A DNA stretch of 64,000 nucleotides from Cyanidioschyzon merolae (taxonomy: Eukaryota), in assembly GCA_000091205.1 (NCBI GenBank), contig AP006493.2. One strand, 5' to 3'. Below are positions 1,005-53,200 of the stretch, piece by piece; position 1 is the first letter of the stretch, and every line of letters begins with the position of its first letter. Position numbers and translations under genes: made by a program. The notes below the pieces were generated by a model. The model made no database searches. It had not been told where the DNA came from and saw only the letters and a program-made list of their open reading frames with translations.

Positions 1005-1049
1005 GGTAGCCAGTCACTGCACCAAACACTTTCGGAGAGATTTTATAAA

Positions 1050-2575
1050 ACTGGTGATTTTACCGAGCTGTACTGAATGCGCACTGTCAGAGAAGCGAAA
1101 CGTTTGCTGTTCTTTGTGGGATAAACAAATACCTTCCCATAGACGCCTCCTAGTCTTTTTTGACCGGTCGCCTGCTACTAGTCTCAGTTTCGCCCTGTGC
1201 ATTTCGATCCTGAGAGGCTGCCCCTTAAAGTTTGCTCGTCTTCAGCACCGCAAATCTCCTGTTATTGATAGCAGCATGGGAGTCCCGGTTCACGAACTCC
1301 GCGTATGCAGCGCTGCTGGTGGACCTCACCAAAACAAGGATTCCTCGAACTCGCGCGTTCTGTGCCACTAAAGTCTCACCATCGCCCCGTTGGCAAACAT
1401 CACTTTCCTTCTGTCTACTTTCTTTTTCGTCTTCTTCTTGCTCACTTGCTCTTCATCGCTCGATGGTTTGCGAGAGGCAAATTTATTTCGTTTTTCCGAC
1501 AGAAGGCGACATCGGGGCTCCAGGATTTTCGACTCCCATGTTCATAACTTTCCCTTGGATTTCCTATTTCTTCAAATCACCACACCAGTTTATGCCCGCC
1601 AGGTGAGGACCTTCACAGAGCAAGAAGGACTTGTGAAAGAGATAATGTGCCCACTGGGACACCATGTGCTTAACGCTTCAGCGATTCGCCCGGTGGAACG
1701 ATCATTACATTTCAGGATACAAAACACTCTTTCGGTTAAGTTGAACCATGGAGCGTACGGAGTAATGAAAGGCGGCTCTACGGCGAGAGACCTGGCAAAG
1801 GCTCGAACGGAAGGGCAATTCTCAAATGCACGGTGTCCAATAGGAGGAGGTCTCCAGATTTCAGGGGAAAAGTCTTCAATGATCCGACGAAGTGGTCGAA
1901 GCTGCTGTTTGAGCCTTCTTTAGACGCCAGAACCGAGGCCACCAATAGTATCTACTGCAGCTAGAACATATGGTGATGTTCTCTTTCGCCTCGAGATCGA
2001 TTGTATATACAACGGGCTCCATGCTCCGCGAATACTCACACATGCTCCGATCGTTTCATTCGAATGACATCTCATCGACTGAAAGAATAAACCGACGTAC
2101 CTGTGCTTCATACGGCTAGTGGCGTTCCGGAAAAGCTATTGCTGCGATTTCGGTGGAGGATGGCCGTGCGTGATCTAGGGCGCTGTTTTTGCGACTACAT
2201 CGCAATGTCTGCAGGACCACGCGAGCTCCCCGCTCAGACACAGAGACGCTTGCGGTGGCTACTATTACGCCTTTTTTCTTCCCGTATGAGGGTCAACGGA
2301 TCGTATTCCATCATTGACTGGAAGCAGTCTTGGAGAATAACGGTTTTGTCGCGGAACGCATGTACTTGTTTCTTTCTTTCATTGTTCCTCAACGATCTGA
2401 GTACTGTTGTATGACTGAACTGAGGGGCGAACGCAGTCCTCCTTGCATTGTTAAGCAAAAAATATTCTCTACAAGCAATTTGTGTACAATCTATATGGTA
2501 CGCTGCGTAGAGATTTGCATGTCCTGCTCTACAGTGCGAAGAAGCATTCTATTTTACGCAGCGGGAGTAAAGCAA
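1050..2575 (-). mobile_element. TnpB/Fanzor-like element, family B copy B0 (degenerate: stops and frameshifts)
   Basis: Minus-strand pieces: a K/R-rich N-terminal ORF (2234..2458), a RuvC-I-like YVLAAVDTIGG (1920..2111), and a C-terminal RuvC-III-like fragment EFVNRDSHAAINNRRFAVLKTSKL* ending about 1228. The 3' noncoding block ggtcaaaaaagactaggaggcgtct is homologous to the 3' ends of A1/A2/B1/B3. The 5' 941 bp are identical to B1. Confidence 0.6.
1635..2575. repeat. 941-bp direct repeat, copy 1 (100% identical to 5415..6355)
   Basis: All ORF translations in 1920..2596 are duplicated exactly at +3780 nt. The two copies diverge at both ends. Confidence 0.9.
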
Positions 2576-3370
2576 GACTTGGTTTCAATAGTATAATACA
2601 AGGCGTCGATTAACGCGGTTCCTGTTACAGCAGTAGGCCATCATAGCGGGTAGACGCCCAAATACGCCTAGATTTCGTCATGGGCTCCAATTCCCAGCAC
2701 TTGCCCGTTTGAAAAGCGACGCGATCATTGTATAACTCGGACGCTGACGACCGAATGAAACGATCTCGTTCGGAAAGCGGCCTGACACAGCATCCAAATA
2801 AGCTCATCTGCCGAATTTCACCAGCGCCATCTGATCCGGTCTGTTTACACTTGCGTATAGATGCCCGGTGCGGCCTGGCGCCGAACTTGACTGCGGCTCT
2901 TCGTCGAACTTGCGACTTCCAGCGGCAGAATTTGGATAGAAGCATCAATGCTATCGAGGTTCGTTTTTTCAGCGTATTAGGATCTGTTAATATACATGCA
3001 ATAATCAGCAATCTAAAAACTGTAGTGACCCCGTACGCGCAGCTTGGATTATGTTATTTCTCTCTCTTTCGATGACATGGATGAAAGGCGGCGAATGCAT
3101 GTCTCCATGTGCTTGTAATGTGAAACGGTTCATACCTGGATAACCGCCGGCATATGATCATGAAATTCTCAAGACTTTACGGCGCGTTGAAGTCAAATTC
3201 TCATGCCGGAAGTCTGTCGAATCGACGCCTTCTACAATTTAACCATTTATGAAGCAAGTACCCATCGTTAAATTCCGATTCGTGACCGGATTCCGCAATA
3301 TTCCATGGAAACCGATGGTCGCCGCAGATGAACTCGGAGAGGGAGCATGGTGGCCTTCCAGGACGCTCTA

Positions 3371-4889: not shown

Positions 4890-6355
4890 TGGTTTCCCTC
4901 CATCCAACGAAAATAAGAAAACAAAGTTGGCTCAGCGAATCGAAAGCCCCTTTCGCAAACACGGAGTAGATTTATATTCACGCGCAGACGCCTCGCAGCC
5001 TTTATCGACCAGCCACGTGCTGTCGGCCTCAGAGTCTCCTTCTGGACTTCCACCCGGAGAGGCTGCCCCATAAAGTTCGCTCGCGTCAGCGCAGCGGGTC
5101 TCGCCTTCTGCACCGCACATCTGCTGATATTGATGGCAGCATTAAAGTCTTGGTACGCGAACTCCATGCATTTATTACTTCTGGATGAACTCACCAATGC
5201 AAGCAGCTCTCGAACTAGTGCCCTCAGTGCCACTTGCTGCTGTGTCAGTTCTTCATGTTTTTCAATCGCGGATGCGCCCCGCTCGCTCTTCTCCACCTCG
5301 ACTATCTGCATTGTGCATCCCGGCACATCCCTAAGATGTTTTATTTTTGAACATGTACGCATTTCTTCTTGCCTTTAGATGACAACTTTCCCGGAGGCAG
5401 AAGAGCTCGTGGAAGAAAGAGATAATGTGCCCACTGGGACACCATGTGCTTAACGCTTCAGCGATTCGCCCGGTGGAACGATCATTACATTTCAGGATAC
5501 AAAACACTCTTTCGGTTAAGTTGAACCATGGAGCGTACGGAGTAATGAAAGGCGGCTCTACGGCGAGAGACCTGGCAAAGGCTCGAACGGAAGGGCAATT
5601 CTCAAATGCACGGTGTCCAATAGGAGGAGGTCTCCAGATTTCAGGGGAAAAGTCTTCAATGATCCGACGAAGTGGTCGAAGCTGCTGTTTGAGCCTTCTT
5701 TAGACGCCAGAACCGAGGCCACCAATAGTATCTACTGCAGCTAGAACATATGGTGATGTTCTCTTTCGCCTCGAGATCGATTGTATATACAACGGGCTCC
5801 ATGCTCCGCGAATACTCACACATGCTCCGATCGTTTCATTCGAATGACATCTCATCGACTGAAAGAATAAACCGACGTACCTGTGCTTCATACGGCTAGT
5901 GGCGTTCCGGAAAAGCTATTGCTGCGATTTCGGTGGAGGATGGCCGTGCGTGATCTAGGGCGCTGTTTTTGCGACTACATCGCAATGTCTGCAGGACCAC
6001 GCGAGCTCCCCGCTCAGACACAGAGACGCTTGCGGTGGCTACTATTACGCCTTTTTTCTTCCCGTATGAGGGTCAACGGATCGTATTCCATCATTGACTG
6101 GAAGCAGTCTTGGAGAATAACGGTTTTGTCGCGGAACGCATGTACTTGTTTCTTTCTTTCATTGTTCCTCAACGATCTGAGTACTGTTGTATGACTGAAC
6201 TGAGGGGCGAACGCAGTCCTCCTTGCATTGTTAAGCAAAAAATATTCTCTACAAGCAATTTGTGTACAATCTATATGGTACGCTGCGTAGAGATTTGCAT
6301 GTCCTGCTCTACAGTGCGAAGAAGCATTCTATTTTACGCAGCGGGAGTAAAGCAA
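4890..6355 (-). mobile_element. TnpB/Fanzor-like element, family B copy B1 (chimeric: 5' part identical to B0, 3' part divergent)
   Basis: ORF 4850..5362 (minus strand) has the zinc-finger/RuvC-III-like C-terminus ...CSKIKHL...YQDFNAAINISRCAVQKARPAALTRANFMGQPLRVEV. Upstream, the same RuvC-I-like YVLAAVDTIGG and N-terminal ORFs occur as in B0. The conserved 3' block ...ggctgcgaggcgtctgcg lies about 4985..5060. The 3' boundary at about 4890 is approximate. Confidence 0.6.
5415..6355. repeat. 941-bp direct repeat, copy 2
   Basis: Identical to 1635..2575. Confidence 0.9.
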
Positions 6356-10443: not shown

Positions 10444-10552
10444 AGGTGCCCAACTCTAGAGAGCGTGCTCTCACCCAGGATTCGGGGTTCCAAATGTTTT
10501 CGATTAAAGAACTGAGCGCGTATACGACTGAAATTTAAGAACCGGCCACTCC

Positions 10553-10821
10553 TGGAAACAAACGCCTTTCGAAAGTCGAACGACGCCAACCGTGTTCAGT
10601 TGTGGCGATCTACCTGCCCCAGACAAGATGTTTCCAATTGACGTGCAGACGCCTCCCCGTCTTTTTGGATCGGCCACGCACTACTACTTCCAACTGTTTC
10701 TCATATAGTTCCACTTTGACAGGTTGTCCCATAAAATTCTCTCTTGTCGACTCTGGAGGCCTTCTTTCCATCACCGCACATTTCCTTATATTGATAGCGG
10801 CGTTAAAGTCTCGTTCACAAA
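10553..10821 (-). ncRNA. candidate omega-RNA-like conserved 3' noncoding module of A1 (includes terminal hairpin cgtcgttcga-ctt-tcgaaaggcg)
   Basis: Runs from the nuclease stop codon to the element boundary. About 80-85% nucleotide identity to A2 38951..39140, although the proteins are only about 75% identical. The core ...aaaagacggggaggcgtctgcac... is shared with family B 3' ends. Confidence 0.35.
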
Positions 10822-13600
10822 CTAAATACGTTTCTTGCCATCATTGGCTGTACTTACTAGTGCAAGTGGCCCACGAACTTTCTCCATCCTTTCCATTTGC
10901 TCTTCCGTCAGTGCACCGTTCTTTGCTATTTCCTCAGGGCTCCGCTGACACTTTCCCATCTCAACCCTCTGAAGTGTACAACCCAGCTCGTGGCGTATAT
11001 ACGTTGTTTGAAATTCATCTACAGGTACTGTAACAAAACGCCGTGCACGCTCCTTGTTCACTCTCGTCTTTGGAGCTGGAGTAGTCCCTTTATGGGTCTT
11101 CCAGCGCCCTGCTCCGTATGCTAATACGAGCCTCTGACTTTCATCCTCTTTGAGAGCACTCAACTCATCGAAAAAATTCGCGAACGCCCGCTGCTTCCCA
11201 TTGTATAGATTCATTCGCAAACGAGCCCACCGGCGCTCGGTATACTCCTCCCACAGCGCATCCCAATGCGCAATGCGAACTTCCATGAATTTCCGAAAAG
11301 CGTCAAAGTCCGCTCCTCGGCTCGTCACCTCGCTCAAAGCTTCTAGGTGATCCTTCATTCCTGAATTCCAGCTCTCGATTTTCTTCCTCGCATTCATTAT
11401 ACCCGATTCTCGATAGTATCTCGCTATCGAGAACCTCAGTAGACGCATGTCTTCCCGACGTAAACTACCGTCAGTACCATCTTCCGCACACTTCGGTGCT
11501 GCGATGGTGATGATATTTGTGTTCCCAGCGTCCGCGCCAACGACAAAGTAGTTATGCTGCACTTTCTGTGTCGCTGGATCCGCCTCCTTCTTTTCTTCAT
11601 CCTTCACCGCGTCAAAGACAAGGTCGTTATCCTGCACCTTTTGCATCGCAGGATCCGCTTTTTTTTTTTCTTTTCTTCATGTTTCTTCACGGGCGCAGCC
11701 GAGGGCGGAACTGGACGATCTTTCTTCAACCGCTGATAGTGTACATTCAAGGCTACTCCATCGGTTTCGATCAACCCAGTGAATACCTTTTGTTTGCTGA
11801 CTTTGAGACGTTTGAAAGCGAAGATATTCTTCCAGTACGTCTCACGGGCTTCACCGGAGAACTCCTCCCTGCTAACATTGAACTCTGGACTGATCTCCCT
11901 AATGATGCCATGAAGGATTCTGGAGTCGATACTCACGAAATGTGACTTGAGGTTGCACAACAGAACGCCATTGAAGCGCTACCCCATTAGGACAGCCTCC
12001 CGTCTCTCCCACTCTTCATTTGTCTCTACACTCAGCTTCATTTCCGCCTTGCGTTCGAGCTCTCGGTCCAGAAACACGACATAGCGCAGAATGAGGCGAT
12101 AGTATCTTTCCTTATCTTTTTTCAACTCTGATATCTTTTCTGTTGGATTCGCCAGCCCCAAGACTGTACGGTGCTCTTGTCTAGCCGCACGGATTATAGA
12201 AGCTTCATTCGTGCTCCTGTGTCACTTTTTCTTGTCGACAAATTCGATCTCATCTTCATACTTTCGATCGTTCTTGATGCCACTGATAATCGCCCATTTT
12301 CCTTTGCGAGAGATGCCCGAGTAGAGTGCTAGCACGGCGTGTATCATGAAAAGTTCGAGGTTCACGATCGGTTGGTTCTTCAGATTCGTGAGGTACTTAA
12401 TCGCCCCATAGTCGTAAACATCCGAGTCACCCCTGTATCGGGTACCCTCGAAGCTATAAAAGGCATGTTTTCGTGCAGGGCGTGCACCAGCTCATTTTCC
12501 CTTCGCGCTTCCTCTGTGCCAAGCATCAGGTGACGAATAAAGGTCTTATCGAAAAACTCGTCCGGAATCTCGACCGTTTCCATGTGCGTCACTTCGCGAT
12601 ACACCTCACTCGCCAAATGCATCAGTCCTGACGACGCCTTGACAATACTCTTGGAGTATGACGCAACACGTCTTTCGATAGCGTCTCGCAACTTGTCCCT
12701 GTAGGGATCCTTGATATGTCCAAGAAGAAAGGTTTTCACCACCATCTCGTCGCACAGTTGTCATTCTTGCCGCTTACGACGTAGGGCCTCTCCATTTCGG
12801 TTCTACTTCTCTTCCTTTTCTTCTGGACCTGGTACTGTTTTTTGTTTTCTTCTGGCAGCCAGCGACACTGAGCCTCTAGGATCGTGGACTTGCTCTTCCA
12901 TAACTTTTCTTTTTTTAATTTTTTGAAAAAGAACGCTCTTTTACAGCTTGCGTCACACACCGCGAAAATTCACTTGAATGAACTTGCTTGAGGGCTGAAA
13001 CACAATTGAAATGAAAAAGTATTCTTTGCTACAACTTCAATGCAAATGCAACTTGTGTGTTGGAACAACAAGAAAAAGACTGGTTAGGATCGAGTTTCCC
13101 TTCAACGACACCGTGCATGTCGCGTCTCGTGACTGCCTTCTCCCCCAGATGCGCGTATCGAGCGCACCGTATAGGAAGAAAGGCAGAGACTCACGGTTCA
13201 CTATCAACGTTGTAACAGTATCTTCCTCCTCTATGATAAACGTTAAAAGGAGGGCAAATGTTTCCTTATTTTGGAAAGTTTACCATATAGGCGAAAGTTC
13301 CCGCGAGCTGTACGAGTCTGCTGGTGAATGCGGTGTGCGCCGCGCAGTGTACAAAATTCCATGCGCTTCCATGCGCTCAGCTGTGCTAGTAAGTAGAAAA
13401 GTCGTCAGTTACAGAGCACGTGTGTATGCCACTTGCAGATCCTGAAAAGGACAACTTCTTCACATTTTACGTGGGAGATGCAGGTTTAGATCTACTCCAA
13501 GTTATAGATTCTTCAAACCACAGGGTGACGCACCCATTCAATCACAGTCGTGGCTGCGAAAATGCAGCTTAATTGGATGCGATTTCATTGTTGTTCTAGA
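10553..13600 (-). mobile_element. Fanzor1-like (eukaryotic TnpB-like RuvC nuclease) element, family A copy A1; coding region about 10822..12960 is disrupted
   Basis: Minus-strand ORF pieces are homologous to A2 piece by piece: a K/R-rich region (12736..12960, ...QKKRKRSR...), MVVKTFLLGHIKDP..., ...GPANPTEKISELKKDKERYYRLILRY..., ...[15 protein letters not shown].... They include Ruv[17 protein letters not shown], the zinc-finger-like VPVDEFQTTYIRHELGC...KCQRSPEE, and RuvC-III FVNE-TLTPLSI, which is broken by a TAG and a 1-nt deletion relative to A2's FVNRDSNAAINI. There is also a tandem ~55-bp duplication plus a T11 tract at about 11600..11670. The about 190-nt 3' noncoding tail and about 900-bp 5' noncoding region are conserved with A2. 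Confidence 0.7.
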
Positions 13601-19329: not shown

Positions 19330-21175
19330 TTTCCGTACCGTTGTTGCGAACGGTGATGAACAGACAGGGGTGGAGAATGAAAAATGTATGCTTCTATGGA
19401 AGAGCGTCACGCGTTGTTCTATGCAATATCCACTTCGTTCCGAAACGCGAGCGCTTATCCATTTGCGTGATCGCCTACACATTGCGACGCGCCCAAGTCC
19501 GTGATCCACTTTATCCTGCGCGTGATCACTTCGTGACTTCTACTTTCCAAATTCGAATATCCAGCTCATTGTCAATGTTGGATCGCGTCAATCAACGGCG
19601 GTCAAAGTGTACGCAGCTGAGAATGGAGTTCTGCTGTTACTTGTGCCAGCATGTGCTCCCCCGCTCGATGCAGTTGAAGGCATCTTCTCTGTTGCCGAAC
19701 GCAGATTTGCGCTCACAGTTAAGCAGAGGAGTCGTTCGCGTCTGCGACAACTTTTGTCGACAAATCACTCTCTACATTTAGCCGCCTTGAACTGCTGTAC
19801 TAGTTGTCTACTCAAGGGAGACAGGTACCGGAAAGCGTGTCCGTCCATAGATACTTTGCGACGGAGATTGCGACGGATATGTGCTTGAGGAAGTTCAAAT
19901 ATATACCTTGAAAAAAGAGGAGGGTTTCAATCGAAATTTGCACACAAAGCATCTTAATCCCAAGTACGGATATGGAGACGGAATACATTGCCCAAATCCA
20001 GGCTATGCCGCCAACAAGAAGAGAAGCCGATGAAGGAAACGTTCTTATTGCGCGAATATGAAGCACGCAAGCGACTTCGTGAAGAGCATATGCCGAGCGC
20101 GTTCATGAATTCTCTTTTACTAGGAGCAAATTGAGAAAAGTTCACAGGCACCATCCCTCCGATGAAAAACAAATCTGCATATATTCTGTGGGAACCAGGT
20201 ATGAGTCGCGAAACGATACACATTAGCATGCATTCAAATTATATGAACAGAGAGATTCTATGGTGCACGTGATTCTAGAGTTGAACCCCGCCATGCCCCT
20301 TGCAATACCCAGGAAATCAAGATGACAGGCTCAAAGACCGTACAGGAACGCAGATGAAGCTGATCAACTTTGCTGGACTCGGTATTATCGTGAATTGAGC
20401 ACTGCGAAGACCAAGAGACCTACCAGCAATAAAAATGACGGCTTCAGGATCCATTTCGACGATCTGAGCAACTCATGGAGGAGAGCGGATTGCCTCGACC
20501 GTTTCATTCAGAAAGTTAGTGAGCGAGCAAATGGCTTCTGCGGACGATCTTGCACAGGCGTTTGAAACACCGCGCTATCTTCGCCCGCGGTGTCAGCATT
20601 ACGAAGGCCAGAAGCGCGCTTACGCCAACTTCTTCGATATTTTGAAAGTAAATGATCACGATGTCGCTTGGTATCATGTTAGCCGATGGCGCTGAGCATG
20701 CGCGAACACTCCAATGCTGCTGTCCTGCTCCTTCGACTGGAGCTTACAACTAGTGCGAGAACTGATTCTTCATCATGACCATCGATTTGCTCAGGACGAT
20801 GCACACGCATCCTGAGCACAGGTGCACGCTGAAACAGGCAGAGAAAAAACGCGTGAGATGGAGGCGGATGCATGAGCTTGTGCAGGGTAAGCTTTCCGAG
20901 CATCAGATGTCGATGCAGTCGAGGTTTCGAGGCTCGCTACAGTGTGCTTTCACCACCAACCAAGCGTGCAAGCAGTTTCCGCGTCGAGACTTGAACGCCA
21001 CGATAAACATCTGTAGATTCCTAGAAGTGCGAGCGCGTCCAGCAGATTTGTGTCGAGTGAATGTGTGATGTAGTTGTGTTGTACTCAATGAGCGCATTAC
21101 ATGGAAAGCGGAAGACTTTGGATAATATAGTTTGGTGACTAGGAGAGATTCATTGCATGCACGCCTGAAGCAACC
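19330..21175 (+). mobile_element. family C Fanzor-like element, degenerate/internally deleted copy C1 (the 3' fragment 20683..21175 is clear; the 5' part is weaker)
   Basis: 20683..21175 is the reverse complement of C2 24815..25310 and contains the ORF ...RRDLNATINICRFLEVRARPADLCRVNV* (RuvC-III-like). 19430..19560 encodes LSICVIAYTLRRAQVRDPLYPARDHF, homologous to C2's LFICMIAYISRNGQVRSSLHPAREDF. Confidence 0.5.
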
Positions 21176-21556
21176 CAATATTCTTCGTTGCGCTGATCAG
21201 ATTAGCAAGGCCGGAGCAATGTGTACGTATATCAGGAAAGATTTTGCGAGGCGATTGTTGAACGATAACTGCGTTCAATTATTCGACATTACTGAGTGTA
21301 GGGCTAACCCACCGAGCATTTTTCTTTCCATGCGCTACTCTGGTTACTGAACCCTGTCCTTTGCTGCTCAAGCAAAGCTCTTTGCTCTATGGTGTAGCAG
21401 ATAACTTCCGAGTACGCTCCTCCAATCTCTAAATTTTCGGGTAACGATCCTACCGTCTTGAGCTTTTTGTTCACTTAGCGCCAAATTCTTTGAAAAAACG
21501 ACTCTATCCGCGGATTCTTCAAGGTTTCTCTTTAATGTGGCCAATAGAGTTTTCCA

Positions 21557-23080
21557 ACTCAAGTTTGTTTCACTCTCGCTGCAGTGGATGCCAGGAGATG
21601 CAACTCTCTATGCAGCGCAACGTATAGATTGTAGACGAATTGCTTCTAGGGTACATTTTTTACTGAACGGCGGAAGGAAGACAGCGTACATCCATCAGTT
21701 CAGTCACACCGCAGTACTCAGATTACAGATGATTAATGAAAGAAGGAAAAATACAGGTATATGCCATCCGCACCAAAAACCGATATTCTCACAGATTGCT
21801 TGTGGCCAACGGTAGGAAACGACCCGTTGATCACCTTAATGAGAGCAAAAGCGACACCAGAAGCCGCGACACCCGTCTCTGTTTCTGAACAGCTTGTTTA
21901 CGTGGTCCTGAAAGCACTGGGATACAGCCGCACAAGAATGTTCAGTTTCACGCATTTTCATCTCCCACCGAAATCGCAATGACAGCGTTCCTAGAACGTC
22001 GTGATCGGTATGAAGCACAGGGAGGTCGGTTGCTTTTTTCGATAGATGAGAATTCCATCGGACGAACCGGTCGGAGCGAACATGCGTATTAACAGAGCAT
22101 GGAGCCCGTTGTATATACAATCGATCTCAAAGAGAACGACGATATAATTTGTTCTAGGCGCAGTGGATACATTTGGTGGCTCTAGTTTTAACTCCCCGAG
22201 AAGGCGCATAAAATCCCTCCCACTTTTTTAAATTATTGAAGACTTTTCCTCGACGCTAGGCGACGTCCTTCTGTTGGCCAACGTAGCGTTTCACCGGTTT
22301 CCTTGTGTTCGAGTTTTGCTGATTCTGTCGGGGTAGAGATGCTTCTAATTCCTCCCTACTCTCAGTAGCAGAACCTCATTGAAGAAATGTTTTTTATCAT
22401 GAAATGTAATGATCGCTCCATTGGACGAATCGCTAGACCATTCAGCACCGTAGCGCCGGGGCATACTTCGTCCTTGTTCCGCAAGTGATTCTCGCTCCAG
22501 GAAGAGATTTAGCTGAGGTCATGAACAAGTGCGTTCATTTTCAAGAAATTGCACCTAAGGAATGAGCTGCGGAGCTCATTTCAAAAGGTCGAGAGGGGGA
22601 GAAGCCAGCAGGGCGCTTCGGAGATAGGAAAGCACAGGGAGCTGACAGGGCAGCAAATGGCAATGAGGGCAAGGGATATAGGAATATTTGCATTGTCGCG
22701 TTCCAGCAACGGCACTGCAAGCATTGAGTTCGTGAACTTAGGCTCCAAAGCCGCCATCAATATCAGACAGTGTGAGGTATTGAAAACGAGACCCGCGGAG
22801 CTGAGGCGAACTTACTTTGTGGGGCGGCCTCTCAGAGAAGAAGTGTACAAGTTGAAGCTCCAGCCGATAGCATTCGGCCGGGCAAAACACTGGAACGCGT
22901 CCGTGCGTGGGTAATATTGAACCCCTACGGGTTGTGGCGCATTACTCATTTAACCTACAGCAAACTGAGCCCGTGGATAGACGTTTACTCACGGCCCGTT
23001 TGGGGTTTCAACAGCCGCAACTGGCTACGTCTCTGGTTTGTAGATGTTCATCGTCGCGATTCCTCAAAGGGGACGTTTGT
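21557..23080 (+). mobile_element. TnpB/Fanzor-like element, family B copy B2 (degenerate)
   Basis: The 5' 250 nt align to the reverse complement of the B0 5' end. ORF 21761..21982 (...SVSEQLVYVVLKALGYSR...) is homologous to the B3 N-terminal ORF. A RuvC-I remnant sits at about 22100..22200 (nucleotide match to 1920..2020, reverse complement). The C-terminal ORF 22549..22914 has IEFVNLGSKAAINIRQCEVLKTRPAELRRTYFVGRPLREEV. Confidence 0.55.
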
Positions 23081-24734: not shown

Positions 24735-27696
24735 AACGCCATTACCGTTCATCAGCTGCAAATGAAAATCGTTCCCTGTGTCTATCTAGGGCGCTCTAAT
24801 ATTTCTGGATGAGTAATCCGTACCGCACCAGTGCGTTGCTTCAGGCGTGCATGCAATGAATCTCTCCTAGTCACCAAACTATATTATCCAAAGTCTTCCG
24901 CTTTCCATGTAATGCGCTCATTGAGTACAACACAACTACATCACACATTCACTCGACACAAATCTGCTGGACGCGCTCGCACTTCTAGGAATCTACAGAT
25001 GTTTATCGTGGCGTTCAAGTCTCGACGCGGAAACTGCTTGCACGCTTGGTTGGTGGTGAAAGCACACTGTAGCGAGCCTCGAAACCACGACTGCATCGAC
25101 ATCTGATGCTCGGAAAGCTTACCCTGCACAAGCTCATGCATCCGCCTCCATCTCACGCGTTTTTTCTCTGCCTGTTTCAGCGTGCACCTGTGCTCAGGAT
25201 GCGTGTGCATCGTCCTGAGCAAATCGATGGTCATGATGAAGAATCAGTTCTCGCACTAGTTGTAAGCTCCAGTCGAAGGAGCAGGACAGCAGCATTGGAG
25301 TGTTCGCGCATGCTCAGCGCCATCGGCTGCTGCTGTAGGATGCGACTTATCTGTCAGTCGCTTTCCGACTCATGAGATAGACTGGCGAACGCATGCGTCC
25401 CGCCTCCGTACAGCCTGGCCCGCAGGCGGTCCTAACGCGGTCTCGAGTGTTCGTACCGTACTTCGCCCGCATGAGTGATCTAGATACCAATGTACGCGCG
25501 TCATGAGGCGTCGAGGGGTGCTCCCTCTGTTCGATACGGTACTCAGGGCGTCTAGAAGGATCCTCACGCCGCATGCCGCTCGTCAATATGCCTCCTGCGG
25601 TCCATCATGCCCAACTCTCGATGACGCCCAGCCCCCGAACTGCTGAGCAGCCCGATCCGCTTTCCGCTCGGTTCTTTTGGTCGTTTCTTCTCATTCTCAG
25701 GTGCGGCGACCGCGAGGAGGCCCTTCAACGCGGGATCCACACGCATCCCAAAGTGCGCCTCCTGTTCCACTCTATACGAGGGACAATGAGTCTCGCGTGC
25801 CCGACTCAGGCGTAGCCATCGGAAAATCTATGCAGATTGATATTCTGTCGGCCCCCATGGTTCCTCTAAGTTTCTCTCCATTTGCTCCGTGTGGATGAGA
25901 ATTCTTGGACGCGCTCGCCAGACGCTCTTCACAAAGTTGCCTGTGTGCTTCCTATTTGTGCGCAGACACCAGCAGCAGCTCACTGAAAACGCCATACACT
26001 ACCGAGCTGGTTTGCGGTGATATGGTGGCCATGATCTGACTGTTGGGTACCGCATCGAACAGACGCTCAAGGTAACTGGTGCGCTCGGACTCGCGACGGG
26101 ATTCGGCGCTGCTCTGGCGCGCTTCGTTCAGGGACAGGTGCTGGCGTAAGGTACACGGAACGAAGGCATCGCGCTTCCACCATTATTCGGACGCAATGTC
26201 CGTGGGTGCGAATCTGAGAGCTACGCAGTGAGCTCGGACGATCTAGACTCACTATCGCTCTGTTCATGACGTCTCCTACGAACTTGCAGCCAACTCGATG
26301 TCCTCCGACATTGGCGCCCCGTTGGCCTCCATCAACACCCCAAGAAAGCCTGCCACCAATCGTCACTTTTGCGGTCCAGCGAGCGGCTGCCAGATCGCCC
26401 CCGGGATGCGTCTCTTGAAGCGCTCGACGTTGGCCGGCAAGCTGGTTCCGTTTTTGCTTCGCGGTTCGTTTGATGCTTTTCTGTACCAGCGCTGCAGATG
26501 TCCCGATCTTCCACGTCGTGCAGCTACTCGTCAAGGTATTCTGCGAAGCGGGTGAGCAAATCTCTGCTCCTGCAATCAGGCCGCATTCCAGCTCCGGTCC
26601 CGATTATCAGTTGCTTTGCCGTGCATAGGTTCGATCGGAATTTCCAGAGGAATCAGGACAGACGGGAGCCCCGCGACCGAAAGTCGTGCGAGTAGTTGTC
26701 TGAGGGGCTGCGTCAAGCCAAGGCACGCAAGATGAGTCTTGCCCGAAACAAGCTTCGCTTTCCGAATGCCGTCCAGCATCTCGCTTATTGGGGAATACTC
26801 TCCGTTGACGTGTTTCAGTAGGGTGGCCTCGACAATGATTTCAGAGTTTGCTGTCCGCTCGCGAAGATTTTTGGCCGTGTACCTACCCGTTCTTGTTGTG
26901 GAAGGATGTTCCTCTTCTTCGTCGGATGCGCGTTCCGCCTTCTCCATTTCCTGGCGGCGTGGTATCGATGCGGTGGCCAGTATTCATACCCGTTGTACTC
27001 TTTGAGGTTCATACGCTCCGTGTAATTGGTGGCACTGAAGCGTCCCTCTCATAAGTGTTTATCTACCACTCGCCAAATACCTCTTCATCACCGTCTCCAT
27101 CGTGAGCACGCCCGCGCAGCCGAGAGAGCTTCTCCGATCCCGCACACACACACACACTCGCACGAAAGGTGAATCCATGAAGTCCTCACGAGCAGGGTGA
27201 AGTGATGAACGAACTTGTCCGTTTCGCGATATGTAGGCGATCATGCAAATGAAGAGCCGCTTGGGGGATGCTACTCTCACCCTCACGTATATCTTCTACA
27301 CGAACAGCGGTTTGCCGGCCTTCGAGTATCCATACACGGGTAGGCCAGCTTTCTAGAATGGCGTCTCATCGAGAGAGACGAAACCCCGTCGCTCTTGTAG
27401 CACGCGTTGGAGTTTCAATACGAAAGTGATAGTTTGTCGTTCATCACGCGATGCTCTCACACACACGCGTGCTTTTTCTCTGCGGCAATCAAAAACTCTT
27501 CATCACCGTTCGTATCAACAGTACGGAAGCTTCAAATCCTCTGGCTTTTTTGGTAGTCTTTCTCAGAGAAGATATGGACTGGAATGGATTGGCGGAAGAC
27601 AGACTCTCGTATAGATAGACTTTAATAAGATCTGTTTTTAATATATGGCGTTCACGATACGGACAATGAGAGAAATCAATCATCCACCTGCTGACC
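24735..27696 (-). mobile_element. family C Fanzor1-like element, full-length copy C2 (2962 bp; about 99% identical to C3)
   Basis: Minus-strand ORF pieces: an acidic/K/R-rich region (MEKAERASDEEEEH..., ARKWRRRNAHPTKKRN); ...EATLLKHVNGEYSPISEMLDGIRKAKL, homologous to the A-family N-terminus; a candidate RuvC-I LSWGVDGGQRGANVGG; and the C-terminal ...FPRRDLNATINICRF... ending at 24941. The frames differ between pieces. Confidence 0.75.
27133..27147. repeat. (CA)n microsatellite inside C2 (also inside C3 at 50089..50103)
   Basis: cacacacacacacac. Confidence 0.8.
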
Positions 27697-27921
27697 AGCA
27701 TGGTGAATGAGTTGTACAAGCCAAGCCAAGTCGTTTTTCGCAAGCGAGCAGTGATTGCATATAACGCTTTTCACGACGTTCCTCTGATCTCCACGATACA
27801 TTCCTTTTGTCGAGTACCCATGAGAGAAACAAGCGAAAACAAAAAGGACGTGCAGATAAATGCGTTCCAGAACTCGCAGTTCTGATTGTAATTATGGACC
27901 GAATGTGGACCTATCCGTGTG

Positions 27922-35754: not shown

Positions 35755-35999
35755 CCAACTGCGCTCACGTATTTTGGCGCTATGCGGGAGTTCAACACAC
35801 TAGTGTGTCCCTAGGAGCTCTATGTATTCCTGATATGACGGGCGTCGATTCTCTGCGTGTCTGAACGCGCCCTCACGAACTTTTAAGATGGCCTTCCTCT
35901 GCGTGCTGAACGTCGTCGCTCGCAGACAGCCGCGGAATTTTTTGATTGACAAAACGTTTTCATGGGCCAGCTTTCGCCAGTTGTGCGCTTTTTCTTTTC

Positions 36000-38900
36000 T
36001 TTCTTTTTTTGTTTTCTTCTGTGCGCAGTGAAGTATCCATCGATCTGTGCCATAATTCCAAGTTACGTTACCCATCCTTCTTCTCCGATATACTGGTCTT
36101 TTCATACGTTCTATCGTGTACCGAGTGCCTGCCATGAGCTCCAGCAATAGCGCATACAGCACCGGTGCTGCCGCTGCACGGAGGCAGAACGGCGTTGCCG
36201 TACCACGGGGAGTATCAACTCGAGGCGTGATTCATTCAACGTGGAATCCGGATTCATAATCATTCTGGGAGCCTGCAAGCTCTGCAGACAGAACTACTGC
36301 CTGCGGCAGCGCGAAGCGATATGTTAGGAGAGAACTACGACCAGGGTGACGCCCAAACGCAGCATACCCGCTCCTAATCCCAGGATAAAGTGGGTTTCGG
36401 ACGAGCTGCTCAGACCTCTTGACAGCAACGGGCACTGGGGAGCATGAAGCACGAGTCTTGTAGACTCTTCCGACTCGCGGGACCTTCCGTCTATAAGGTA
36501 AACTTTCAACAATATTGAAACCTCTTCCCCCTTTCAACGTTCACCTTAGAGGAGGGAAAGAAATTATTATATCGCTGCTAGTTAGTCTAGAGTCTCTGTT
36601 CTTTGTTCTAAGTAGCGCGCTCGGTACGCGCTGCTCCATATCTGAAAGGCATGAGATACAACGAGCTTTTCGCCGTTGAAGGGAAACACGATCCTGACTA
36701 TTCGTTTACTTGTTGTTCTAACATAAAACTTGTATTTGCATTAAAGTCGTAGCAAACTATAGTTTCCAGTTCAATCGTGTTTCAAAGCTCGAGTTAGTGC
36801 ATTCAAGTGATTTTTCGCAGATTCTACCAGAAGCGCTCAAAGTGCGTACGTTTTCAAAAAGATAAAAAAGGAAAGTTATTGAAAAGGAATTGGAGGATCC
36901 CGGAGACCCAGTATCGCCAGCTGGCGGAAATAAACGACAAACGATGCCGAGCCCGGAAGAAGAGGAGAAGATAAAGAAGGAAAAGGGGAGGCCCGACGCC
37001 AAGGGCCGCAAGAAAGACGACAGTACGATGAGACGGTGGTGGAAGCCTGTCTTCTTAAACATGTAAGGGATCCGCACAAGGAAAATTTGCAAGATGCCAT
37101 AAGAATTCGTGTCCAGTTGTACCCCAGGAGTGTTCGTAAGGTTTCTCTAGGACTGATGCATTTGGTGAACGAGATGTATGGCGACGTGACGGACATCAAA
37201 ACAGTCGAGGTTCTGGGAGACTTATTCGACAAGCCCTTTATTCGTCACCTGATGGCTGGCACCGGGGAAGCGTCGAGGAGAAATGAACTAGTGCATGCCC
37301 TCCAGGAAAACTAAGCCAAACTCCGATTCGACGGTACTCGCACTAGGGTTACTCGGATATTTACATCTACAGAGCGATGAAGTACCTCATGGGCCTGAAG
37401 AACCATATGATCGTGAGCCTCAGTCGTTTCGTGATACGCGACGCCTTTGCGCTGTACCCGGGCCTGTCTCGCAAAGGAATATGGGCAATTATCAATGGCA
37501 TCACTAACGATGGTCAGAACGAAGACGAGATCGAATTTGTCGACAAGAAGACATCAAGCAGGAGAAAGAATGAGGATCCTGCAATCCGTGCGGTTATTCA
37601 AGGGCATCGTGCGGTATTGGGGCCGGCGAATCCAGCAGAAAAGATATCAGAGTTGATAAAAGACGAAGAAAGATACCATCGCCTCATCCTTCGGTATTTC
37701 GCGTTTTTGGACCGAGAACTCGAACGCAAGGCAGAGATGAAGCTGAGTAGGGGAAAAATGAAGAGTCGGAGAGACGGAAGGCTGCCCTAATCGTTAAGCG
37801 CTTCACCGTCGTTTCGCTGTGCAACATCAAGTCATAATTTGTGACTATCGACTCCGGACTCCTCTACGGTATCATGAAGGAGATCAGTCCCGAGTTCAAT
37901 GTTAGCAGGGAGGAGTTTACCGGTGAAAACAGGGAGACGCACTGGAAGAACATCTTCAGTTTCAAACGTCTGAACGTGAGCAAGCAGAAGTTCTTCACTG
38001 GGATGATCGAAACCGATGGAGTAGCCATGTGTGTAAACTATCGGCGCTAGAGGACAGATCATCCATTTCCGCCCCCGGTTTCGCCCGTGACGAAGGAAGA
38101 AGAAAAGAAGGAGGCGGATCCTGCGATGCAGAAAGTGCAGGATAACGACTTTTTGGTTGGCGCTCACCCCGGAAACACAAATATCATAACCATCGCTGTA
38201 CCCAGGCGTGCGGAGGATGGTACTGACGGTAACTTGCTTCAGAAAGACATGCGTTTTTTGAGGTTCTCGAGAGCAAGATTCTATCGAGAATCGGGAATCA
38301 TGAATGCAACGAAGAAAATTGAGACATGGAATGCAGGAATGAAGGATCACGTAGAAGCTTTGAGCGAGGTGACGAGCCGCGGAGCGGACTTTACAGCTTT
38401 TCTGAAATTCATGGAAGTTCGTGTTGCCCATTGGGATGCGCTGCCGGAGAAGTATACCAAGCCCCGGTGGGCTCGTCTGCGAATGAATCTGTATTGTGGT
38501 AAGCAGCGGGCGTTCGCGAATTTTTTCAATCAGCTGAGTGCCCTGAAGGAGGACGAGAGCCAAAGGCTCGTAGTGGCGTATGGAGCAGTGCGATGGAAGA
38601 CCCAAAGAGGGTGTACACCAGTTCCAACGACAAGATCGTACAAGGAGTGCGCAAGGCGTTTCGTCACGATACCTATAGATGAGTTCCGAACATCGTACAC
38701 ACACCATGAACTGGGGTGCACACTTCAGAGGGTCGAGATGGAAAAGTGCCAGAGGAGTCCTGAAGATATAAAAAAGTACGGACCGCTGACGGAGGAGCTA
38801 ATGGAAAGGAGAGCGAAAGTTCGAGGATTGCTTGCATTAGTAAGTACAACCATTAATGGCAAGAATCGTTTCGAGTTTGTGAATCGAGACTCTAACGCCG

Positions 38901-39140
38901 CTATCAATATATGGAAATGTGCTGTGATGGATCCAAAACCTACGGAGTAGACAAGAGGGGACTTTATTAGACAACCTCTCAAAGTGGATATATATGAAAC
39001 AAAGTTGGAATCAGTAGTGGATGGCCGATCGAAAAGGACGGGAGGCATCTGCACCTCGGTTGCACACGTCTTGTCTAGGGCGGGTTTCTCGCCACTGCTG
39101 TGCACCGCTGGCGTCGTTCGACTTTCGAACGGCGTTGTTG
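36000..39140 (+). mobile_element. Fanzor1-like (eukaryotic TnpB-like RuvC nuclease) element, family A copy A2; coding region about 36944..38950 is disrupted
   Basis: ORF pieces: a K/R/E-rich region (36944.., MPSPEEEEKIKKEKGRPDAKGRKKDD), 37036..37314, 37377..37790, 37841..38050, and 38087..38950. The last carries Ruv[18 protein letters not shown] (the catalytic Asp of A1's GADAG is His here), the zinc-finger-like [17 protein letters not shown]...KCQRSPED, and RuvC-III RFEFVNRDSNAAINIWKCAV. There is an in-frame TAG at 38048..38050. The ATG is lost (ACG/GTG at 37033..37038). About 900 bp of 5' noncoding region are conserved with A1. Confidence 0.7.
38951..39140 (+). ncRNA. candidate omega-RNA-like conserved 3' noncoding module of A2, ending in hairpin gcgtcgttcga-ctt-tcgaacggcg (39111..39134) at the element boundary
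   Basis: The 190 nt after the stop are about 80-85% identical to the A1 tail. They contain a core (gatcgaaaaggacgggaggcatctgcac) that is also present at the 3' ends of B0, B1, B3. Homology with A1 stops abruptly right after the hairpin. Confidence 0.35.
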
Positions 39141-39217
39141 GTGTGCGGTTTTATAAAGTTAACGTAACTGCTATCACTACAGGGAGTTGAACTGCCCGGG
39201 AACCTTAACTTGTTGCA

Positions 39218-44559: not shown

Positions 44560-46125
44560 TACCGGCGACAACTCAGGCTGGATTTGTACTCAAGAGCCGT
44601 CCATAATGTAAACGCTCAATGGAGCGAAACTGTCTCACAACCATAGTGTAAATTAATACCTACCCACAGACGCCACGCAGCCTTTTTGACCAGCCGTATG
44701 CTATCTGTTACAGCTGCTGCTTGTACATCTCCAGCCTGAGAGGCTGCCCCACAAAGTTCGATAGTGTCTGATCCTTGGATCTCGTCTTCAGCAATCCACA
44801 TCGTCTGATGTTGACGGCGGTGTTGAAGTCTCGGTTTTACGGACTACATGCGTTTATTGCATCTGGTTGAGCTCATCAATGCAAGGATTCCCAGAACTCG
44901 CACCCTCTGGCCCACAGCAGCCTCTTCGTCGTCCCGTCGGGCATACACCTTTTTTTCTATGTCCCTTCTTTTTCGCATTCTTCTTTTTCACTTGCTTTTC
45001 GTCGTTAACTGGTCGGCAAGCTGCGGATGTTTTCACATTTTCCGGCAGCCGGCAATGGCGGAGCTCTAGGATGCCTCACTTCAATGCCAGTACCTTTCCC
45101 CTGGATTTTTTATTTCCTCAAATGAAAGCAGTTCTTTACGACCTTAAACGAGAGAGTTTCCAGAGGGAGACGGAATTGCAGAAGAAAGACGAAATGTGTT
45201 CCAGTCTGCCACCGTATACTGACCGCTTCAGCGATTCGCTCTGGAAAGCGACTGTTAAGTTTTGCGACAAAAGACCCTTCTTCGATATGGTCAAATCGTC
45301 GAGTCCACGCAGGAATGAAAAGCAGTTCTCCCCCAGTAGAATCCGCAAATGCTCAAACGCAAGAGGAACCGTGAAATGCAGCGTTGTCCGATAGACGGAC
45401 GTCGCCAGACGGCAGCGGAAAGTGTTTAGTTATTCGAAGATGTGGTTGGTACTGCTGGATGAGCCTTCTCTATGAGTGAAACTGATGCCACCAAATGAAT
45501 CCACTGCAGCGAGAACCGATGATGGCGCCCTTTTCTTAGAGTTCAGTCGAACATTCAACGGGCTACCGCTCCGCGAATTCCCATACATGCTCCGAAATTT
45601 TCGTCCGAAACACTCCTCATAGACTGAAAAAAAACCAACGTGCCGCTGCTTCATATCGATAGAACCTTTCCTGGAACTTTGTTGTAGTAGCGATTTCGGT
45701 AGACGCTGGCCGTGGATGAACTAGGACTCCTGTTTTGCGACTGAATCCCAGTGTTTTCAGCACAATATGAACAAGTTGTTGAGAGACAGAGACGCTCTTG
45801 GTGGCTAATATAGTTTCTTTCAGCTCCCGTAAGGTGATCAACAGCTCGTTTTCTATCTTTGACAGCAAGCAGTTCTCAGTAATATCGGTACTGGGCGCGG
45901 GTTGCATATACGTGTTTCTTTCTGTGCTCCTCAAGCACCTGCGTATTGTTATATCACTGAATTTAAGAAGGAAAACAGTCCTCGTCGCTCTGTTGAGCAA
46001 AGCATATGTCCTGCGAACAATTCGTGTATGGTATATAGAGTGCATTGCATCGTGATTTCGATTTCCTGATATACACTGCGAAATAATATTCTGTCACACT
46101 CAGCGGGGGCGGAATAAAACTCAGC
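44560..46125 (-). mobile_element. TnpB/Fanzor-like element, family B copy B3 (degenerate)
   Basis: Minus-strand N-terminal ORF 45617..46045 (...SVSVSQQLVHIVLKTLGFSRK...). RuvC-I-like SVLAAVDSFGGISF (45430..45654). C-terminal remnant NRDFNTAVNIRRCGLLKTRSKDQTLSNFVGQPLRLE at about 44700..44830. The 3' block ggtcaaaaaggctgcgtggcgtctgtggg and the 5'-end nucleotide homology to B0 define the limits. Confidence 0.55.
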
Positions 46126-52444: not shown

Positions 52445-53200
52445 GGGTTTTTTTTTGCCGATGCCGAAACGCTTTTATAAACCATCGATCCCAGATTGCC
52501 GGATGGATGGATTTTAGCTTTCGGGAAAGCGTCCATCATGCTGCCACACCAAGATCCATGACCTGTTCTCGGATGTAATGGTCTTTTTGTTCGTTCTATC
52601 GTGCACCCAGTACCTGGTTTGCCGCACCCGGCTTAACTCTTATATCTCGCTGGTGCCGATGCATCATGGAGACAGAGCGACTTTGCTGTGCCAGAGAGGG
52701 CATCGGCTAGAGGCGTGTTGCACTCGACACAGGATCGGAGAACACAAGCACTCTGGAAACCTGCAAGCTGTACATATAGCCCTGCTGTCTGTAGCAGCGC
52801 GAAGCTGTATGGTAGGAGTCTACTACGACTAGTGCAACGCCCAGGAAACGCTTTACGACTCCTAGTCCGAGAATAAACTGCGTTTCGAACGAGCTTCTCA
52901 GGTCTCTTCACAGCACTAGGCACTGGGAAACGTATGTATCACTGGCCCGGAAGAGTCGTCCGGCTGCCTGGAGCTTTCCCCAAGAGCATAAACTATCGAG
53001 AATACGGAAACACTTTCACGTTTTTAACGTTTCCTGTAGTGGAGAAGTGAACTATTTTCGATCTGCCCTATGTGTAGGCCTCTGCCCGGAACATCGAATG
53101 CAGTGCACCGCGTGTATAGCCCTGTTTTAAAGGACACTGAGGAGACAAAAGCGAATGGCAAGTATGGTGTATTGAGCGCTGTCGACCGGCCGGAATGAAA
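52445..53200 (+). repeat. solo copy (A3) of the family A element 5' noncoding region, with no nuclease ORF attached
   Basis: Collinear nucleotide homology to A2 36000..36660, for example ggtctttttgttcgttctatcgtgcacc vs ggtcttttcatacgttctatcgtgtacc, and ...gcgaagctgtatggtaggag... vs ...gcgaagcgatatgttaggag.... This is also reflected in the similar spurious ORFs 36232..36537 and 52633..52923. Confidence 0.45.

Follow-up and report, generated by a model that had tools for sequence, protein, structure and literature searches.

The 64,000-nucleotide stretch of the Cyanidioschyzon merolae genome analyzed here (contig AP006493.2; referred to below as the window) contains two divergent copies of an element of about 3 kb in inverted orientation, A1 on the minus strand and A2 on the plus strand, with coding remnants that resemble TnpB and Fanzor nucleases. 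These copies raise the question of which element they represent, whether either could still encode a nuclease, and how such an element moved. The original prediction, made from the DNA sequence alone, had described a decayed Fanzor1-like element; that identity holds, whereas the novelty it implied does not, since the family was published in 2013. We conclude, with a probability of roughly 0.93, that A1 and A2 inserted independently and are long-dead members of CMe-1A, a family of ~3.2 kb that lacks terminal inverted repeats (TIRs) and carries a Fanzor1 gene.

Two decayed copies of CMe-1A

CMe-1A is the sole Fanzor1 family tabulated for C. merolae by Bao and Jurka (2013, Mobile DNA 4:12; PMC3627910), who reported ~150 copies of ~3 kb that are ~80% identical to the consensus, with the table entries "N" for TIRs and "n.a." for target site duplications (TSDs), and a 5′ region of 635 bp that matches a separate element, TE-N2_CMe. 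The supplements of the same paper provide a CMe-1A consensus of 3169 bp (Additional file 2) and a 734-aa CMe-1 protein. In BLASTN, A2 (36057..39134) aligns to positions 90–3169 of this consensus with 84.9% identity over 3089 columns, and A1 (13321..10563) aligns to positions 494–3169 with 83.6–86.2% identity. A1 lacks consensus positions 1–493 and is therefore truncated at its 5′ end. Membership in CMe-1A is thus established by direct alignment to the published consensus. In addition to this similarity over most of their length, the copies share with CMe-1A the C. merolae host, the multi-copy occurrence, the absence of TIRs and the 5′ module.

That the window contains two divergent inverted copies is clearly confirmed by a self-BLAST, in which 10561..11605 matches 39136..38092 with 82.2% identity and 11609..13319 matches 38163..36462 with 76.0% identity, both inverted and both with E=0, far beyond chance. 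Each copy is sharply delimited. In comparisons with A2 and other members, the family homology of A1 ends at 10559–10561 and at ~13321; the segment 13322..13600, previously included in A1, is unique and lies downstream of the FO-synthase gene. The boundaries of A2 lie at 35938 and 39136–39140, and its first part (35938..36056) is a variant 5′ extension that is also found in other copies and starts sharply at 35938. The 5′ noncoding sequence common to both copies had been estimated at ~900 bp, but is limited to ~420 bp (A1 13321..12902 and A2 36462..36877); the full family leader is 905 bp long and most of it is retained only in A2.

The copies are not assembly duplicates of each other, having different host-gene neighbors and separate orthologues. 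Independent hot-spring metagenome assemblies contain three loci that are 99% identical to A1 (L077, L081 and L082) and one that is 99.3% identical to A2 (L055). An empty-site allele of A1 was sought among related strains and none was found; since the insertion is present in all of them, its TSD and exact target cannot be read.

Both copies are pseudogenes, and neither can make a protein (Table 1). With respect to the 784-codon family consensus described below, A1 and A2 together contain ten in-register stops and seven frameshifts. A1 retains its ATG at 12901 and the codons of the RuvC residues Asp (11532), Glu (11016) and Asp (10810), equivalent to the complete catalytic triad, while A2 fails at the first of the three residues. 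The lesions listed originally (TAG at 10824 and a 1-nt deletion at 10813 in A1; TAG at 38048, the Asp>His replacement and the loss of the ATG in A2) were all recovered, but this list undercounted the damage. All ten stops, as well as the Asp>His and ATG>ATT changes of A2, recur in the environmental orthologues, and their presence in independent assemblies indicates that they are not sequencing errors. This comparison covered the stops and the two point changes of A2. The only difference noted lies in a homopolymer of A1, which consists of A11 in strain 10D and of A9, in frame, in L077, L081 and L082, and an ORF (open reading frame) caller yields a 370-aa product from the A9 orthologues versus 274 aa with A11. 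The difference may be a genuine polymorphism, or the homopolymer may be wrong in one of the sources. At most, A1 and A2 could be a source of 3′-end transcripts.

Table 1. Coordinates of the CMe-1A copies, their lesions and related features in the window, and domain limits of the consensus protein
Feature	Position	Strand	Details and basis
Window			C. merolae 10D chromosome 11, genes CMK047C to CMK057C
A1, 5′-truncated decayed CMe-1A element	10561..13321	−	BLASTN to published consensus
A1 5′ leader remnant	12902..13321	−	part of TE-N2-like module; GC-rich subterminal palindrome ~13150–13175; A2 alignment
A1 degraded Fanzor1 ORF	10619..12901	−	626/758 codons identical to 784-codon consensus
A1 in-register stops	12805, 12763, 12224, 11981, 10824		
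A1 frameshifts	12471; repeat/A-run region; 10813		1-nt deletion at 10813
A1 repeat	11532..11672	−	1.9 units; A11 run (T11 on plus strand, 11659..11669) in first unit breaks frame
A1 3′-terminal 135 nt	10561..10695	−	decayed candidate omega-RNA scaffold; terminal hairpin 10562..10586 kept; ends ...GGCGTT at 10561
A2, essentially full-length decayed CMe-1A element	35938..39136	+	BLASTN to published consensus
A2 5′ module, TE-N2_CMe-like	35938..36640	+	also solo and in internally deleted derivative
A2 degraded Fanzor1 ORF	36878..39078	+	551/729 codons identical to consensus
A2 stops	37312, 37344, 37835, 38048, 38948		
A2 frameshifts	36979, 37341, 37749, 39040		
A2 other lesions	36878; 38165		ATG>ATT (36878); RuvC-I Asp>His, CAC (38165); Glu (38681) and Asp (38888) kept
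Longest surviving A2 ORF, 287 aa	38087..38950	+	one repeat unit, RuvC lobe, Zn-ribbon-like insert; ORF list
A2 3′-terminal 135 nt	39002..39136	+	candidate omega-RNA scaffold, overlaps ORF end; hairpin 39111..39135; ends ...GGCGTT at 39136
Solo 5′ module	52459..53032	+	consensus 1–575, 74.9%; between RecA and CAF-1 genes
N-terminus	consensus residues 1–52		basic, probably disordered
WED and REC	consensus residues 53–395		
Linker	consensus residues 396–474		
RuvC	consensus residues 475–735		with TNB-like insert (655–715)
Tail	consensus residues 736–784		basic

Reconstruction of the protein and assignment to Fanzor1

The longest A2 ORF, used as a query, retrieved 272 homologous protein fragments from metagenomes (65–99% identity), none of which exceeds 500 aa; with the N-terminal ORF as query, no match was longer than 212 aa, and a full-length protein of the family was not among them. 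A metagenome scan gave 417 related stretches, with hundreds of similarly broken paralogues, from which 80 loci were fetched. From 50 non-redundant copies a consensus was derived that spans 2638 nt of the core and contains one uninterrupted ORF of 784 codons, with its stop ~50 nt before the end of the element. The product of this ORF and the published CMe-1 protein of 734 aa share 84% identity, the main difference being two extra 25-aa units in the former. The window copies are 85.8% and 88.9% identical to this rebuilt consensus, and have therefore diverged by 11–14%. Divergence of the copies from the consensus amounts to 0.105, 0.089 and 0.151 at codon positions 1, 2 and 3 respectively, and in the RuvC half it is three to four times greater at position 3 than at position 2. 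Thus the family diversified under purifying selection on its protein, as argued earlier by Bao and Jurka (PMC3627910).

An exhaustive hidden Markov model (HMM) search detected 1167 relatives, many of them 580–740 aa in length and matching in their C-terminal half. A profile built from 70 full-length relatives and the family consensus was searched against the PDB and matched PpFz1 (9cf0, E 2.9e-19), SpuFz1 (8gkh, 4e-11) and GtFz1 (9cer, 1.7e-6), with no other significant match. The DPG, DEFRTS and NRD motifs of the family align with D383, E541 and D606, which form the active site of SpuFz1 (PMC10432273). The corresponding triad of the consensus consists of D481, E653 and D722; all 70 relatives have the first two residues, and at least 90% have D722.

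For one relative of 699 aa, P0283, the alignment to the consensus extends over the entire length with 39% identity, which validates the frame-corrected reading, including its N-terminal third. An AlphaFold2 model of P0283 has a predicted local distance difference test score (pLDDT) of 88.8 and a predicted template modeling (TM) score of 0.87. The seven best matches of this model in a Foldseek search of the PDB are all Fanzor1 proteins (E 1e-16 to 1e-15; target TM scores of 0.54–0.73), while Cas12, TnpB and Fanzor2 appear only at E 1e-4 to 1e-3, including Fanzor2 9b0l (1.4e-3) and TnpB 8h1j (1.7e-3). The C-terminal 500 residues of a member of the family itself, P0017, were also modeled (pLDDT 78.9). 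The CMe-1 protein is therefore a member of Fanzor1, and the modeling predicts for it the Fanzor1 fold, with WED, REC and a split RuvC domain containing a TNB insert.

The RuvC-like and zinc-finger-like motif strings on which the original prediction was based are present in ORF fragments of both copies: A1 contains VDEFQTTYIRHELGC...KC and, after the frameshift, NRDFNAAINI, and A2 contains a zinc-finger-like stretch ending in ...KC and FVNRDSNAAINI. The N-terminus of the consensus contains the basic clusters RKKQK, KKNRK and RRRRQERR, and the matching residues 1–27 are disordered in the P0283 model. The linker preceding the RuvC domain is a coding tandem repeat of 75 nt (25 codons), in frame, with a unit that reads roughly K[D/H]... 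A2 has one unit, A1 has 1.9 (period 75, 78% matches in Tandem Repeats Finder) and other copies have up to six, and in the P0017 model this linker is predicted to be without order. What had been interpreted as a 55-bp tandem duplication in A1 is this 25-codon repeat, present as 1–6 units in the family.

Several results weigh against the assignment. Scans of the ORF pieces, the family proteins and the consensus with Pfam and NCBIfam gave nothing significant; the best Pfam score of the consensus, for PF07282 (Cas12f1-like_TNB, formerly OrfB_Zn_ribbon), has an E-value of 0.81, so that the OrfB families suggested earlier as a check do not match the element itself. Since PF07282 is matched by 14 of the 70 relatives (30–40% identity; best E 2.1e-8), this failure is a problem of sensitivity. 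Similarly, a shallow within-family profile gave only chance matches in the PDB and no solved relative, and the profile search worked only after the exhaustive HMM search had supplied diverse relatives. The fold was tested by proxy, on a relative that is 39% identical to the consensus and not on the family protein. No fully intact copy was found among the 80 metagenomic loci; the best, L004, has an open frame of 778 codons with an intact triad and lacks the last 35 codons. According to Bao and Jurka (PMC3627910), the C. merolae genome does contain some intact ORFs of the family. The zinc ribbon is degenerate, its cysteine ligands (CxxC...CxxC) being largely replaced by HH..C...C in CMe-1, and judging from these substitutions its TNB domain may not bind zinc. 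Finally, RNAalifold detected essentially no consensus structure in full or trimmed alignments of the 3′ end (−0.45 kcal/mol for 37 copies), a null result that is attributed to the neutral decay of the copies.

In the zinc-ribbon region, the consensus reads ...KC...LLALVST, compared with CxxC...C(x)4C in SpuFz and PpFz. In the CMe-1 clade, with most of the 70 relatives counted, the TNB insert no longer has its zinc ligands (CxxC...CxxC), and LLWC is usually all that is left. On this pattern the clade may constitute a zinc-less subclade of Fanzor1.

Element ends, candidate omega-RNA and modes of movement

No TIRs were detected in A1, A2 or the core, for which the alignment scores of the ends fall inside the distribution of shuffled sequences. 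More than 50 copies have a sharply defined 3′ boundary that reads ...GAAC/AGGCGTT, with its last nucleotide at position 10561 (A1) or 39136 (A2). For the 3′-terminal 135 nt of the consensus, the predicted folding energy is −61.9 kcal/mol, with a z-score of −4.2 on the sense strand (0 of 200 shuffles) and −1.6 on the antisense strand. The corresponding 135 nt have a minimum free energy of −53.2 kcal/mol and a z-score of −2.1 in A2, and a z-score of 0.04 in A1. Two subfamilies with differing sequences each have a terminal hairpin of 10–11 bp with G-U pairs, GCGUCGUUCGA-CUU-UCGAACGGCGU and AACGUUUUUC-UUUU-GAAAGACGUU respectively. The structured 3′ end resembles the omega-RNA scaffold overlapping the ORF end that is expected for a Fanzor (PMC10432273), and by this analogy it is a candidate omega-RNA of CMe-1A. 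Covariation tests were judged unreliable because the copies are neutrally decaying relics, and scans of the window for Rfam families and tRNAs gave no match.

An intact CMe-1A would have encoded a single intron-less Fanzor1 protein of 734–784 aa, comprising a basic, disordered N-terminus similar to a nuclear localization signal (NLS), the WED and REC domains, an acidic, disordered linker of 1–6 repeats of 25 aa, and a split RuvC domain with a degenerate Zn-ribbon insert. Fanzors characterized to date use an omega-RNA from the transposon end, with the 3′ flank as guide, for cleavage that depends on a target-adjacent motif (TAM) (PMC10432273). By homology, the CMe-1 protein would associate with an omega-RNA transcribed at the element's 3′ end, take the downstream flank as guide and cut matching TAM-adjacent DNA, and such cutting would help the element to persist or spread. 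No TAM-like motif is evident at the 5′ flanks. At the 3′ flanks of ~33 copies, the first ~10 nt after ...GGCGTT (39137..39150 and 10547..10560, for example) are 72% G+T and return to background by +20, with motifs that include GTTGGTG and TGTTTCCAGG; this G+T-rich flank could reflect a target preference, a variable tail or a guide-related feature.

The 5′ part of the family is modular. Upstream of the core, copies carry either a TE-N2-like module, as in A2, or a different 470-bp "type I" module, and many copies begin with the core near A2 36611–36647, after the GC-rich palindrome. Variable or truncated 5′ ends occur (A1, L016 and L044), and solo or inverted 5′ modules are found in L007, L015, L018, L043, L044 and L064 and at 52459..53032 of the window, the last of which is presumably a TE-N2_CMe element. 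In L004 (1..4483), L007 (3495..3808) and L079 (960..1275), a TE-N2-like 5′ terminus (TTTTTTCATGGAC...) abuts the 5′ end of the CMe-1A core. The head-to-head junction has no spacer and the arrangement itself has been propagated, which points to 5′ modules of recombinant origin or to a favored site of insertion.

Two modes of movement can be weighed against these features. In the first, CMe-1A would be a strand-specific unit without TIRs or TSDs (moved by an IS200/IS605-, Helitron- or Replitron-like mechanism acting on single strands, or by Fanzor-assisted homing), with its hairpins as DNA signals instead of, or in addition to, RNA structure. Such a unit would fit the failure to find TIRs, the sharp ...GGCGTT end after a hairpin that differs in sequence between the two subfamilies, the palindrome at the 5′ end of the core and the variable 5′ ends; it would also fit a second Fanzor lineage in the window, whose two 2962-bp copies are 99.5% identical and have clean junctions, no TSD or TIR and the same ...GGCGTT, although these near-identical copies could equally be a segmental duplication. 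We nevertheless regard this explanation as unlikely, since the strand-specific structure with G-U pairs favors RNA and, among the genes of the window, none for an HUH/Rep protein or a helicase was seen. Carriage by a Replitron or a Helitron was rejected, given the lack of a Rep gene in the window and of any report of Replitrons in red algae (PMC10288648).

In the second, which we consider more doubtful still, CMe-1A would be a non-autonomous derivative of a Tc1/mariner transposon (IS630-like, DDE_3) that carried Fanzor1 as a passenger, and would have been moved in trans by a transposase of this type. Neither TIRs (in A1, A2 or the core, or in the published table; PMC3627910, where the TSD is also "n.a.") nor any DDE_3 similarity inside A1 or A2 was found, and other copies show no link between their type I 5′ module and a transposase, whereas the neighborhood of CMe-1A relatives and of other lineages in the window does contain DDE_3 genes or remnants. 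The closest intact relatives, P0283 and P0308, lie directly downstream of PF13358 DDE_3 and HTH_Tnp_Tc3_2 genes on the same strand; DDE_3 remnants in the window adjoin other Fanzor1-like remnants (21624..22312, 27215..27764 and 45224..46045, for example); L043 and L044 each have a DDE_3 remnant after a solo 5′ module of the CMe-1A type; and Bao and Jurka describe mariner-borne Fanzor1 genes outside C. merolae, one example being PUl-1, which has TIRs of 24 bp and TA as its TSD (PMC3627910). A transposase within CMe-1A was looked for and none was found, and the type I 5′ module proved not to be linked to the DDE_3 remnant of L067.

Two further explanations concern the identity of the copies and not their movement. 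It is scarcely credible that they serve the host as Fanzor genes, functional or domesticated, with apparent lesions due to sequencing errors, introns or programmed frameshifts, for which only the polymorphic A11 run (in frame as A9 in three environmental orthologues) would speak, because the ten stops and seven frameshifts, the recurrence of all the stops and of the A2 Asp>His and ATG>ATT changes in independent assemblies, the 11–14% divergence from an intact consensus and the hundreds of broken paralogues all argue for dead copies. An assembly or segmental duplication artefact, a bacterial or organellar TnpB (IS605) or a viral Fanzor2 would be compatible with the generic TnpB-like motifs alone and has a negligible probability in view of the 76–82% identity, different flanks and separate orthologues of the copies, their position between nuclear host genes, the Foldseek matches to Fanzor1 at E 1e-16 (1.4e-3 for Fanzor2 9b0l and 1.7e-3 for TnpB 8h1j) and a protein of 734–784 aa with a basic N-terminal extension.

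With respect to the genomic setting, four long flanking ORFs match C. merolae 10D proteins exactly (CYME_CMK047C, CYME_CMK056C, BAM80444.1 and BAM80451.1), all encoded on one record 852,849 bp long. BAM80444.1 is a homologue of FO synthase subunit 2 and BAM80451.1 a plastid geranylgeranyl diphosphate (GGPP) synthase. Other long ORFs of the window are nuclear genes, including those for a plastid sigma factor, UMP synthase, RAD23, an organellar RecA and CAF-1. From these flanking proteins and ordinary nuclear genes, the window is part of a nuclear chromosome arm of an intron-poor red alga.

Other Fanzor1-like lineages and comparison with known systems

A second Fanzor1-like lineage is represented in the window by 24735..27696 and 47681..50642 (minus-coded), of 2962 bp each and 99.5% identical, and by an inverted fragment at 20681..21177. 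Its copies contain a DDE_3 remnant followed by a nearly full-length, frameshifted Fanzor1-like frame that is 24–38% identical to P0283; they have clean junctions, no TIR and no TSD, and end in ...GGCGTT as in CMe-1A. A third repeat family, found at 1122..2565, 5018..6306, 21592..22872 and 44649..46107, has copies that are 67–70% identical, although 1635..2575 and 5415..6355 are 100% identical. In this family, Tc1/mariner-type DDE_3 remnants lie directly upstream of Fanzor1 C-terminal remnants with 42–48% amino acid identity to CMe-1, and the 3′ coding end shares GGCCGGTC-AAAAAGAC-GGGAGGCGTCT with CMe-1A. Outside the window, P0283 (699 aa, from a brine metagenome; L085:541–3706) and P0308 (630 aa; L086:2156–4893) are encoded immediately downstream of DDE_3/HTH_Tnp_Tc3_2 genes on the same strand and are in Tc1/mariner-type carriers.

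CMe-1A and the young second lineage share the ...GGCGTT terminus and the absence of TIRs and, apparently, of TSDs, and CMe-1A additionally has a predicted sense-strand structure before the terminus. It is tentatively possible, though on balance improbable, that at least three Fanzor1 lineages in this 64-kb window, one of them very recently duplicated or moved, jointly represent an unclassified and possibly still mobile class of Fanzor transposons. These side observations are leads rather than findings.

As the rediscovery of a published repeat family, the identification of A1 and A2 in itself changes nothing. C. merolae grows at ~45 °C and pH 2. The consensus of 50 copies supplies an intact 784-aa Fanzor1, a candidate omega-RNA scaffold of 135 nt and an exact 3′ terminus, parts that would be suited to testing a possibly thermotolerant eukaryotic RNA-guided nuclease; if such a class of transposons exists, its omega-RNA and thermotolerant nuclease could be resurrected from the intact consensus. 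Additionally, the architecture without TIRs and apparently without TSDs and the young sister lineage bear on how Fanzor1 elements move without a recognizable transposase.

In comparison with CMe-1A as published, nothing essential differs: the organism, the single-exon protein, the absence of TIRs and the separate occurrence of the 5′ module are the same, and the copies are ~80–89% identical to the consensus. A1, which through its truncation begins only at position 494 of the consensus, contains two repeat units, A2 contains the extra segment 35938..36056, and the rebuilt consensus is 2 nt longer at the 3′ end (...GGCG+TT) and has three 25-aa units versus one.

The bacterial TnpB of IS200/IS605 elements (ISDra2, 8h1j) belongs to the same superfamily of RuvC-fold RNA-guided nucleases. 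TnpB is smaller (~400 aa) and has no NLS-like extension, and its match to CMe-1 in Foldseek (E 1.7e-3) covers only the RuvC lobe. As in IS200/IS605, CMe-1A lacks TIRs and, apparently, TSDs and has subterminal hairpins, and a guide RNA would be expected from the 3′ end together with the flank. To our knowledge, no Y1 TnpA partner is present in C. merolae.

The closest characterized systems are SpuFz1, GtFz1 and PpFz1 (PDB 8gkh, 9ceu–9cez, 9cer and 9cf0; Saito et al. 2023, PMC10432273; Xu et al. 2024, PMC11423790). CMe-1 differs from these Fanzor1 proteins in that structural alignments yield only 12–16% sequence identity, the zinc-ribbon cysteines are mostly lost, a family-specific acidic 25-aa repeat precedes RuvC-I, and the carrier has no TIRs. 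It is predicted to share with them the same fold and the same order of WED, REC and RuvC with a TNB insert, and it has the same D/E/D motifs (DPG, DEF/YxTS and NRD) and the basic N-terminal extension. As in characterized Fanzor1 elements, the end of the CMe-1 ORF overlaps a 3′-terminal region that is predicted to be structured and would be the expected site of an omega-RNA.

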